A stretch of 64,000 bases of DNA from Escherichia coli 042 (GTDB taxonomy: Bacteria; Pseudomonadota; Gammaproteobacteria; Enterobacterales; Enterobacteriaceae), in NCBI RefSeq assembly GCF_000027125.1, contig NC_017626.1; one strand, 5' to 3'. Under the pieces are notes generated by a model. It made no database searches and was not told where the DNA came from. It saw nothing but the letters and a program-made list of their open reading frames with translations. Positions 43,782-45,569 of the stretch are shown here, one piece after another. The translations under genes and the position numbers were made by a program. Position 1 is the stretch's first letter, and each line of letters begins with the position of its first letter.

Positions 43782-45569
43782 TTATGCAAAATCCTCAAGG
43801 TGACGACTGATACTGTTTTCACGGTAACAGGTCACCAGTAATTCACGGGTTGCCCGGGTGAACGCCACATAAAGCACCGGGATTACTTCAGACTCATCCG
43901 CTACACCAGAAGGAATGAAAGACGCATTGATAACCGCCACATACGGGAACTCCAGCCCCTTACTGCTCTGATATGTCAGTAAATGCACCACATCCTTACG
44001 TCGCGAGTATGCCTTCTTGCCTTCCCTGTCAAAACAGGTGGCAAAAGGCATCCCGCGTTGTGTCATAACGTCCTGCAATTGTTTCGCTGAATGCTCTGTC
44101 GGACACAGCACAGCCATATCACTCCAGTGACCGCACAGGGCATGGCACTTCTCCAGCCAGTCTGCAACCTGTCTGGCTTCATCACGTTCAGAAGCACAAT
44201 GCAGGATTTCCGGCTCTGTACCCTCTTCACCGCCTGCCTGTGGCTGAACAAGTGGTATTTCACGGTTCTGATGTTTTTCAAAATACTCGCGAGAGAATGC
44301 ATAAGCAAAGTGCAGAATGCGTTTCGGATTACGATAATTGACCGGCAGGACAGAAGTGCGTCCCTGCGCCTGAATCCCCACACTGGCCAGAGAAAAGTTC
44401 AGAGCCCGCTCCCGCCGATAAATGGACTGGGCATCATCGTACATCAGGAGCAGTGAACGGGATGCGTTATCAAACAGACGGGCAATCAGGGCCAGCCAGC
44501 GACTGTCAAAATCATGCCCTTCATCCACCAGTACAGCATCATATCCGGCGTCGGTGATTTTCCCGCTGTTCACAGCCTCTTCCAGTGTGCTGAAGCATTT
44601 CTCCGGGTAATCCTTTCTGTCAGCCGTCACCTGAATACCGTGGCGTTTTATCATTGAGGCACACCAGCTGTGAAAATGAGATACCGTAACCCGTGACGTC
44701 AGCCCTCTGACATCAATGCATTCCCGCAGATAACTGGCCAAAGTAATGTTGTAGCACAGCACCAGAATCTTTCCGGGCGTGGTTTCAGCCAGGTAAAGGC
44801 AACGGAATAAAAGAATCATGGTTTTTCCGGAGCCGGCCACACCATGAATGACACGATGCCCGTCACCAATATTTCTGGCCAGAATCTCCTGCTGAATATC
44901 CATGATTTTGATTTGTGAGTTCTGTTTCACGGTCACTTCAGGAAACAGATGGGCGCGCAGAATATCTCTCATCCGGGGTGTCACCCGGGTTCTGAATCCC
45001 GTGGTAAACATCCCGGCAATTTTTTGCCGGAATACCTCAGGTAAAACAGACTGCGTCATTTCATCCTGACAGATTGTCTGTGCTGAAGGAAAAATCTTTT
45101 CCACCGCATTCTCATCATTCCCTGTCAGTGCCTTCAGTTGCTGACGGGTAATGCGGGTGAACACCACACCATACGCCCAGGCCAGGTTCAGCCGCCCCTT
45201 ATACTGACCGTCATTCTGCCGTAAGCACGGGTCAGCAAGTAAGGCATTAACCGTATCACATGCATAACGACGAGCCTGTACCAGCGGATTTATTTCTGAT
45301 TTCAGAAGACCGTCGGTTTCCAGTGTAACCTGCTCCTGATTTGCTTTACGTAATGTGGATACAGTCCAGTCCTTGACCTCCAGAAATACCAGCCCGTTAT
45401 CCGGGTCAATAATGACAAAATCCGGATGTCGGTTTTTCCGTCCCACCGGGATATCGTACCAGACAAAGCAATCATCATTCAGAAAGCTCTCCAGTCGTGA
45501 AGCCACCCTCCTCTCCCCGGACGTCATTCTCTCCTCAGTGGACGCCGATACATTTATCAGTTTCGCCAT
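43782..45569 (-). CDS. NERD-domain nuclease fused to UvrD-like SF1 helicase
   Basis: 595 aa; N-terminal NERD-like block (FVWYDIPVGRKNRHPDFVIIDPDNGLVFLEVKDW), Walker A GVAGSGKTMILL, DEGHDF Walker B, C-terminal UvrD-like helicase region. Confidence 0.65.
   Translation of the reverse strand: MAKLINVSASTEERMTSGERRVASRLESFLNDDCFVWYDIPVGRKNRHPDFVIIDPDNGLVFLEVKDWTVSTLRKANQEQVTLETDGLLKSEINPLVQARRYACDTVNALLADPCLRQNDGQYKGRLNLAWAYGVVFTRITRQQLKALTGNDENAVEKIFPSAQTICQDEMTQSVLPEVFRQKIAGMFTTGFRTRVTPRMRDILRAHLFPEVTVKQNSQIKIMDIQQEILARNIGDGHRVIHGVAGSGKTMILLFRCLYLAETTPGKILVLCYNITLASYLRECIDVRGLTSRVTVSHFHSWCASMIKRHGIQVTADRKDYPEKCFSTLEEAVNSGKITDAGYDAVLVDEGHDFDSRWLALIARLFDNASRSLLLMYDDAQSIYRRERALNFSLASVGIQAQGRTSVLPVNYRNPKRILHFAYAFSREYFEKHQNREIPLVQPQAGGEEGTEPEILHCASERDEARQVADWLEKCHALCGHWSDMAVLCPTEHSAKQLQDVMTQRGMPFATCFDREGKKAYSRRKDVVHLLTYQSSKGLEFPYVAVINASFIPSGVADESEVIPVLYVAFTRATRELLVTCYRENSISRHLEDFA

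Follow-up and report, generated by a model that had tools for sequence, protein, structure and literature searches.

A NERD nuclease-SF1A helicase fusion gene on a tRNA-Phe island of Escherichia coli 042 as a candidate for stand-alone defence

The Nhi protein of Staphylococcus epidermidis (SERP2475; Bari et al. 2022) consists of an HsdR-like nuclease and a DUF2075/PF09848 helicase of superfamily 1 (SF1), type SF1B (Dda, Upf1, DNA2-like), with bipolar unwinding, and confers stand-alone anti-phage immunity requiring both the nuclease and the helicase activity. Another described relative, C3a187, is cluster 187 of Shah et al. (RNA Biol 2018/19; PMC6546367). This cluster has three members with Dole_0738 as representative, adjoins type III-A/B modules of the clustered regularly interspaced short palindromic repeat (CRISPR)-Cas systems and was proposed to encode a helicase-nuclease giving Cas3-like processivity. 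Furthermore, NERD modules with experimental defence phenotypes are known from HEC-02 and ZwsA, and NERD-helicase genes accompany UG34 defence reverse transcriptases. The gene considered here lies on the minus strand of a 64,000-nucleotide stretch of the Escherichia coli 042 genome (contig NC_017626.1; this whole stretch is called the window below) at 43782..45569, and encodes a protein of 595 amino acids (aa) combining a NERD nuclease domain with an SF1A helicase core. We regard it as an intact gene for a probably functional nuclease-helicase and as a candidate for single-gene immunity.

The listing of open reading frames (ORFs) in the window contains a single ORF covering these positions, with an ATG start and its stop codon at 43782-43784. 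Re-translation of the codons placed the strings quoted in a preliminary description of the locus where they had been reported: DFVIIDPDNGLVFLEVKDW comprises residues 50-68, the Walker A string GVAGSGKT residues 243-250 (nucleotides (nt) 44820-44843), and DEGHDF starts at residue 349 (DEGHD codons at nt 44511-44525). That description had interpreted the product as a NERD nuclease and a UvrD-like SF1 helicase fused in one polypeptide, and Pfam domains, motifs and conservation agree with it. The AlphaFold model of the 595-aa protein reached a predicted local distance difference test (pLDDT) value of 92.5 and a predicted template modelling score (pTM) of 0.90. The ORF and its domains are real and far exceed a chance match, as 570 clusters at 50% identity match the protein at E<1e-30, most of them about 600 aa long and end-to-end in the same layout.

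The nuclease domain comprises approximately residues 1-140 (45150..45569, minus strand). Pfam matched NERD (PF08378) at residues 17-109 (model positions 4-94 of 111, E 2.6e-10), and the domain exhibits the alpha-beta-beta-beta-alpha-beta arrangement of the restriction-endonuclease-like fold, with NucS as its top match. The catalytic codons are located on the minus strand at 45513-45515 (E19), 45420-45422 (D50), 45372-45380 (E64-V-K66) and 45276-45278 (Q98). In an alignment of 72 full-length homologs sharing 27-59% identity, D50 was present in all 72 sequences, E64 in 69, E19 and Q98 in 67 each and K66 in 65, with Arg replacing K66 in four more. Fold and catalytic residues, both claimed before, were thus recovered, the residues being kept in 65-72 of the 72 homologs. 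Judged from its sequence, the domain is a NERD PD-(D/E)xK nuclease with an intact E...D...ExK...Q site and a predicted endonuclease.

The SF1A UvrD/Rep-like helicase core follows at residues 219-595 (43785..44915, minus strand). The domain search suggested in the preliminary description matched here as well, with UvrD-helicase/AAA_19 at 226-385 and UvrD_C/UvrD_C_2 at 407-583 in Pfam beside the NERD match. All SF1 motifs (Q, I, Ia, II, III, IV, V and VI) are present and invariant or nearly so in the 72 sequences: the Q motif D224/Q227/E228, GxxGxGKT at 243-250, DExxD at 349-353, DDAQ at 378-381 (motif III, DDAQS within nt 44424-44444), NYR at 411-413 (motif IV, NYRN, nt 44328-44339), KGLE at 537-540 and TRA at 571-573 (motif VI, FTRA, nt 43851-43862), all on the minus strand. 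The residues K249, D349, Q381, R413, G538, T571 and R572 were found in 72 of 72 homologs and E350 in 71.

The RecA-like 1A/2A core is closest to SF1A structures, and UvrD, Rep, PcrA, AdnB, AddA and RecB are the closest solved relatives. In a phmmer alignment with UvrD of D. radiodurans, residues 313-347 of the query (about 34 residues) stand at the position of domain 1B (UvrD 106-225, about 119 residues), and residues 508-523 (about 15) at that of domain 2B (UvrD 380-560, about 180). Only about 350 of the 633 residues of Rep could be aligned. Domain 1B is reduced and 2B absent, and the motor is a minimal 1A/2A core, since it has only these two short stretches where UvrD has 1B and 2B. Among the NCBIfam repair families the best score was 66.9 bits for PcrA, with a cut-off of 911. 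The protein is a minimal-core relative of UvrD and Rep and not their orthologue.

Nuclease and domain 1A are connected by residues 141-218 (44916..45149, minus strand), which form a helical linker according to the AlphaFold secondary structure. The linker gave no specific family in the Pfam or PADLOC scans. Its residue R205 is invariant in a 34-sequence N-terminal alignment and kept in 70 of 72 sequences of the full alignment, and P210, within the stretch F209-P210-E211, is nearly invariant in the 34 sequences.

The best PADLOC match of the protein was PDLC01087 'C3a187' (NERD+UvrD; E 4.5e-140), covering residues 1-594 and profile positions 1-556 of 559. By profile the two belong to the same family and have the same NERD and UvrD architecture, but C3a187 was defined from three genes by their adjacency to type III CRISPR-Cas, whereas no cas genes are found next to the E. 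coli gene. The family is therefore already catalogued as a candidate, and the E. coli gene makes a sensible lead but comes as no surprise. C3a187 is not mentioned in the supplements of Payne et al., and our literature search found nothing for the E. coli accessions, for 'NERD-UvrD' or for 'NERD helicase'.

With Nhi the protein shares the arrangement of an N-terminal PD-(D/E)xK nuclease and an SF1 helicase in one polypeptide, and Nhi serves as our working model. The motors differ, being SF1B in Nhi and SF1A here, where PF09848 matched only with an E value of 0.023. Nhi profiles were not among the 25 best PADLOC matches of the full-length query (others E >8.8e-5), nor did they appear when the N-terminal 224 aa alone were scanned up to E 10. 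Because Nhi has an SF1B DUF2075 helicase, and given the lack of a profile match, we do not place the protein in the Nhi family; the earlier term 'Nhi-like' holds for the architecture but not for the family.

RecB, AddA and AdnB carry their nuclease at the C-terminus, possess full 1B and 2B domains and act in core repair as hetero-oligomers (RecBCD, AddAB, AdnAB), whereas in the E. coli protein a NERD-type nuclease is N-terminal, domain 1B is reduced, 2B is lacking and no partner gene accompanies it. Its UvrD-like core yields matches to many models of Gabija GajB (E about 6e-20). These are partial, and there is no adjacent GajA, the neighbours being an IS3 remnant, a small pseudogene and remnants of a type VI secretion system (T6SS), so the gene was not assigned to Gabija. 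Membership in HelD/HelR was rejected, too: the protein has neither the secondary-channel coiled-coil arm nor the clamp-opening insertion. Among further UvrD-like helicases linked to defence are the DRT-associated RTasHel and RTasNERD-Hel; the latter matched partially in PADLOC with E 1.5e-15, including the first 72 NERD residues. HEC-02B, the N-terminus of PglW and ZwsA share the NERD PD-(D/E)xK module with its (D/E)xK signature, but couple it to an ABC ATPase partner, kinases or RNA-binding domains instead of an SF1A helicase; ZwsA cuts RNA.

RefSeq (PGAP) starts the protein at M15, resulting in 581 aa (WP_001529578.1), under the product name '3'-5' exonuclease', for which the literature search found no experimental basis. 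M1 and the N-terminus 'MAxxIP' are kept in at least 90% of the 72 homologs, residues 3-14 are ordered in the AlphaFold model, and a Shine-Dalgarno-like AAGGTG is located 7 nt in front of the first ATG. As the first 14 residues are conserved across distant homologs, the 595-aa start is better supported than the RefSeq start (window positions 45527-45569 are in question).

The allele of the window was compared with two alleles of about 5% divergence from O104:H4 and OkiPb01682. The ratio of nonsynonymous to synonymous substitution rates (dN/dS) in this comparison was 0.17 (0.17-0.26 among E. coli alleles), and by region 0.10 for NERD and 0.19 for the helicase, indicating purifying selection on both halves. 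Of the 5426 complete E. coli genomes searched with megablast, 1047 (19%) matched the gene, 614 of them at full length, and many E. coli genomes carry copies of 99.7-100% identity in the same layout. With 19% of the complete genomes as carriers the gene is accessory and not a housekeeping gene; the possibility raised earlier that it is a housekeeping helicase found in all E. coli was rejected on this frequency and on NCBIfam scores far below every cut-off. In O157:H7 the copy is cut at nt 797 by IS66, leaving approximately the NERD half (e.g. NZ_CP017436.1, 861713-862509). This truncation is natural and lineage-wide, and O157:H7 could serve as a comparison strain.

Homolog diversity was taken from the search of 50%-identity clusters, as a word-indexed protein search returned only near-identical E. 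coli entries. Species representatives belong to gamma-, beta- and alpha-proteobacteria, cyanobacteria, Nitrospirae and Chloroflexi. No full-length homolog was found in 50,697 phage records, and a phage origin was rejected. Plasmid-borne homologs occur on IncF and other plasmids of E. coli, on a Pantoea megaplasmid, on Nostoc plasmids and on a conjugative plasmid of Vibrio harveyi, where the homolog adjoins a 2.5-kb N6-methylase. An integrase neighbours the homolog at one locus, on a small mobile element, and a Tn7-like TniQ does so at another. The gene is thus accessory and mobile, and the earlier claim of accessory DNA is met both by its frequency and by its presence on conjugative plasmids.

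All-against-all clustering of the ORFs within 5 kb of 86 homologs revealed no neighbour family in more than seven loci. The most recurrent neighbours reflected synteny at genus level in Bradyrhizobium, Rhodanobacter and Comamonadaceae. The gene truly stands alone, as the preliminary description had supposed.

Known defence genes are found close to several homologs. Directly upstream of the O104:H4 copy is a gene for a GIY-YIG protein matching PD-Lambda-1 with E 5e-88 (locus L002, 7563-8807), and one homolog abuts DarT-DarG between core genes. Of another 20 loci sampled outside E. coli, six had neighbours matching known defence models, namely a type II restriction-modification (RM) system together with PDC-S02, an LmuB-like operon beginning with a gene that overlaps the stop codon of the homolog, a 1794-aa Avs4/PDC-M54A-like protein, a PDC-S41/AbiO/Nhi-like helicase, a type II restriction endonuclease, and a type IV restriction endonuclease with a RES-Xre antitoxin. 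At three further loci of the 20, the neighbours belonged to mobile elements or toxin-antitoxin systems (Tn7-like TniQ, a HipA-like protein, TnpB). The flanks were mostly scanned with PADLOC and for a few loci (L054, L076) with NCBIfam only; the tally is approximate, as the NCBIfam-scanned flanks were only partly repeated with PADLOC. The defence-rich context described before is consistent with these neighbours, i.e. the RM, Lamassu-like, Avs-like and DarTG genes beside distant homologs and PD-Lambda-1 in O104:H4, and with a Shango system 6 kb from the gene in the window.

The LmuB-like case is that of Polaromonas eurypsychrophila (L024, 8001-14661). There the stop codon of the homolog overlaps the start of a 579-aa gene followed by a gene for a 1030-aa LmuB-like SMC ATPase (PADLOC E 4.5e-30), and the homolog seems to form a single operon with a Lamassu-like system. 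It was the only case of possible co-transcription with another defence module that we saw.

We favour the interpretation that the protein is a self-contained, ATP-driven nuclease-helicase which, as the product of one gene, protects the cell against foreign DNA, e.g. replication intermediates of phages or plasmids entering the cell, and estimate its probability at roughly 55%. It is supported by the architecture and motifs, by selection, by the accessory and mobile distribution, by the neighbouring defence genes and by the lack of a partner, as well as by the independent listing of the family as a helicase-nuclease beside type III CRISPR modules and the association of NERD-helicase genes with UG34 reverse transcriptases. 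By analogy to UvrD, Rep, PcrA, RecB and AddA, the SF1A motor would load on 3' single-stranded tails, nicks, gaps or ends of the foreign DNA and, like other SF1A enzymes, would translocate from 3' to 5'. The NERD nuclease, tethered just in front of domain 1A, could then cut the strand being threaded, and the outcome may be a processive degradation as in RecB or AddA, performed by one chain. Because the auto-inhibitory 2B domain is missing, control would probably be exerted via substrate access or via the NERD and linker domains.

Several points weigh against this interpretation. The domain identities, the conservation of the active sites, selection, mobility and neighbourhood are computed results, whereas substrate, polarity, coupling and the discrimination of self and non-self are carried over from RecB, AddA, UvrD and Nhi, and the literature search found no experiment on any member of the NERD-UvrD family. 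The helicase core is about as similar to HelD, which does not unwind, as to UvrD. Upstream of the gene, a crude consensus scan of the window detected no sigma-70 promoter consensus on its strand. In Ralstonia solanacearum, 112 megaplasmid records carry the homolog at a fixed position, which looks lineage-core and not mobile. About half of the sampled loci had only housekeeping or unannotated neighbours, e.g. in Pseudomonas (L025), in Hydrogenophaga (L026), at L007 and at syntenic Bradyrhizobium loci next to rluD. Since the neighbour sample was small, non-random and partly chosen by gene size, the enrichment of homologs near defence genes is suggestive and carries no statistic.

Alternatively, the protein might be an enzyme of DNA repair, recombination or replication restart serving the host or the carrying element, either as a one-chain analogue of AddA or RecB or as a NucS-type nuclease. 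The closest solved relatives and the top match of the nuclease domain fit such a role, as does the occurrence of several homologs singly among housekeeping genes, their fixed position within Bradyrhizobium and on the Ralstonia megaplasmid, and an E. coli IncF plasmid copy that shares its region with umuDC, a Y-family polymerase and an SOS-response peptidase. A repair function is hard to reconcile with the patchy distribution in E. coli and the frequent disruption by insertion sequences, as by IS66 in O157:H7, with direct defence-gene neighbours in about a third of the sampled loci, with the lack of AddB- or RecC-type partner subunits in the 86 loci, and with the PcrA score far below its cut-off as the nearest approach to an NCBIfam repair family. 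We consider a repair role unlikely, at about one chance in a few.

The upstream side of the gene gives rise to another reading. An ORF of 80 aa at 45671-45913 (minus strand) encodes the C-terminal remnant of an IS3-family transposase, which belongs to the context and is not part of the gene. The 100% identical RefSeq locus lists it as an incomplete 'integrase core domain-containing protein', in agreement with the IS3 remnant reported before. The remnant replaces the original upstream content: depending on the strain, the upstream slot holds the IS3 remnant, the PD-Lambda-1 gene or an Ail/Lom gene, and therefore the site behaves as a variable cargo slot. Between the remnant and the start codon lies a 5' leader of 101 nt (45570..45670, minus strand). 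It contains a hairpin of 13 bp at 45610-45640, CGACATCCACG ATATAA CGTCGTGGGTGTCG, about 40 nt in front of the start codon and followed by a T-rich run; the leader folds with -29.6 kcal/mol (z -3.56). No Rfam family was found in 43300-46400. The hairpin could be a terminator of upstream read-through or a regulatory element. Of the 'own upstream region' claimed for the gene, the leader is thus present, but it measures only 101 nt, has no sigma-70 consensus on the strand of the gene and carries this strong hairpin.

It might therefore be that the gene is a silent or decaying relic in strain 042, separated from its promoter by the IS3 insertion. The position of the remnant, the loss of homology to other loci about 95 nt in front of the ATG, the missing promoter consensus, the terminator-like hairpin and the broken state of the neighbouring small ORF and VasL gene are compatible with this. 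On the other hand, the ORF is uninterrupted, retains every catalytic residue and has a dN/dS of 0.17, and the copies of 99.7-100% identity recur in many genomes of the same layout. The homology to the O104:H4 locus begins about 95 nt in front of the ATG, so that the same leader precedes the intact copy there, with mismatches in its version of the hairpin, and the promoter scan was crude. A relic is hence improbable in our opinion.

Downstream, the gene is bordered by decayed sequences, which the preliminary description had not noticed. A small-ORF pseudogene at 43440..43716 (minus strand), 65 nt behind the gene, differs from a 101-aa version by a 29-bp deletion and a frameshift. The 101-aa ORF is intact in O104:H4 and OkiPb01682, had no PADLOC or PHROG match and was found by tblastn next to E. 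coli copies only (90 loci). A two-gene system with this ORF was rejected, as it does not stand beside non-E. coli homologs, matches no family and is frameshifted in the window. It is followed by the remnants of a split T6SS gene, ImpA_N/VasL, at 42041..43388 (minus strand, RefSeq annotation). These are syntenic with an intact T6SS cluster holding a NERD-UvrD homolog of 59% identity. Locus L004 (1-9357) has the order TssM, TssA, TssF, TssG, TssJ, TssE, a hypothetical protein, NERD-UvrD and VasL in an intact cluster, and its VasL aligned with the window in two pieces of 66% and 33% identity (tblastn). In Budvicia aquatica (locus L090, 1254-7330) a homolog of 44% identity adjoins hcp, at the margin of a tssBCEFG cluster. 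Other E. coli lineages have tssB, a truncated tssC or a frameshifted tssE upstream of the gene, and about 85 other loci contained no T6SS genes. In the simplest reading the gene was inserted into a T6SS cluster of an ancestral enterobacterium and was kept by E. coli as the secretion genes decayed; that its placement in this cluster is functional rather than historical is a weaker addition.

Such an addition would be a T6SS-tied role in Enterobacterales, e.g. as an accessory factor, as a counter to DNase effectors or as a nuclease effector with the small ORF as immunity gene. The homolog between tssE and vasL on the same strand of an intact cluster, the Budvicia homolog next to hcp, the flanking remnants in E. 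coli (tssB/C or tssE upstream, ImpA_N/VasL downstream) and the small, variable ORFs behind the gene in each lineage point in this direction. Yet the roughly 85 other loci lack T6SS genes, purifying selection has kept the gene intact amid decayed T6SS genes, and the small ORF is missing beside non-E. coli homologs and frameshifted here next to an intact enzyme. Effector markers such as PAAR, Rhs, MIX, FIX or a DUF4123-adaptor linkage did not appear in the Pfam scan, there is no conserved immunity gene, and an ATP-dependent helicase of 68 kDa is an unlikely Hcp cargo. We judge a T6SS-tied role very improbable.

A function as type III CRISPR-Cas accessory nuclease-helicase supplying Cas3-like processive degradation, to which the full-length C3a187 match, the origin of that family beside type III-A/B modules and a UvrD/NERD auxiliary gene in a later CRISPR-association screen would point, is highly improbable, as the identical RefSeq locus has no cas gene annotated within 20 kb on either side, no cas family recurs beside the 86 homologs, the Pfam scan found no CARF or SAVED sensor domain, and the three original members stand against 570 clusters. 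Most of the wider family shows no link to CRISPR.

The gene is part of a large genomic island, the left end of which is formed by tRNA-Phe (27125-27200) followed by a tyrosine integrase (27398-28663), and which extends beyond the end of the window. The same island carries the complete Shango system SngABC at 32011-37835 on the plus strand (PADLOC E 1e-100 to 1e-277), consisting of the TerB-N protein SngA (769 aa), the ATPase SngB (438 aa) and the helicase SngC (732 aa). Between Shango and the gene lies the pair ibrA/ibrB (39284-41139, minus strand), encoding a PAPS-reductase-like and a ParB-like protein. IbrA weakly matched BrxP (E 2.6e-7) and DndC (E 2.4e-4) in PADLOC, and in several lineages of E. 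coli ibrAB again adjoins both Shango and the NERD-UvrD gene. An ORF of 235 aa at 41280-41987 (minus strand), hypothetical in RefSeq and without PADLOC match, falls into a low-GC patch at 41000-42000 (0.33-0.35, compared to 0.48 for the window). The microcin H47 cluster (mchI, mchB, mchF) is located at about 50-59 kb.

Returning to immunity against invading DNA as the favoured function, it may be that the combination of NERD with a minimal SF1A motor represents a widespread, partner-less anti-phage or anti-plasmid family, a kind of 'mini-RecB' distinct from Nhi (SF1B) and Hna (SF2), which in Enterobacterales entered and outlived a T6SS cluster. We hold this broader proposal only tentatively, at slightly less than even odds.

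If the defence function is true, the gene would add one more single-gene system to the pan-immune repertoire of E. coli, present in about 1/5 of the complete genomes, with carriers including tRNA-Phe islands of the extraintestinal pathogenic E. coli type, O104:H4 and IncF plasmids. The protein would offer a simple model for a 2B-less SF1A motor coupled to a nuclease without partner subunits, and C3a187 would turn from a CRISPR-accessory candidate of three genes into a stand-alone system of general occurrence. As nuclease-helicase defence enzymes are a well-populated class, the gain would be incremental. In carrier strains, such a system could affect the host range of therapeutic phages as well as plasmid uptake.

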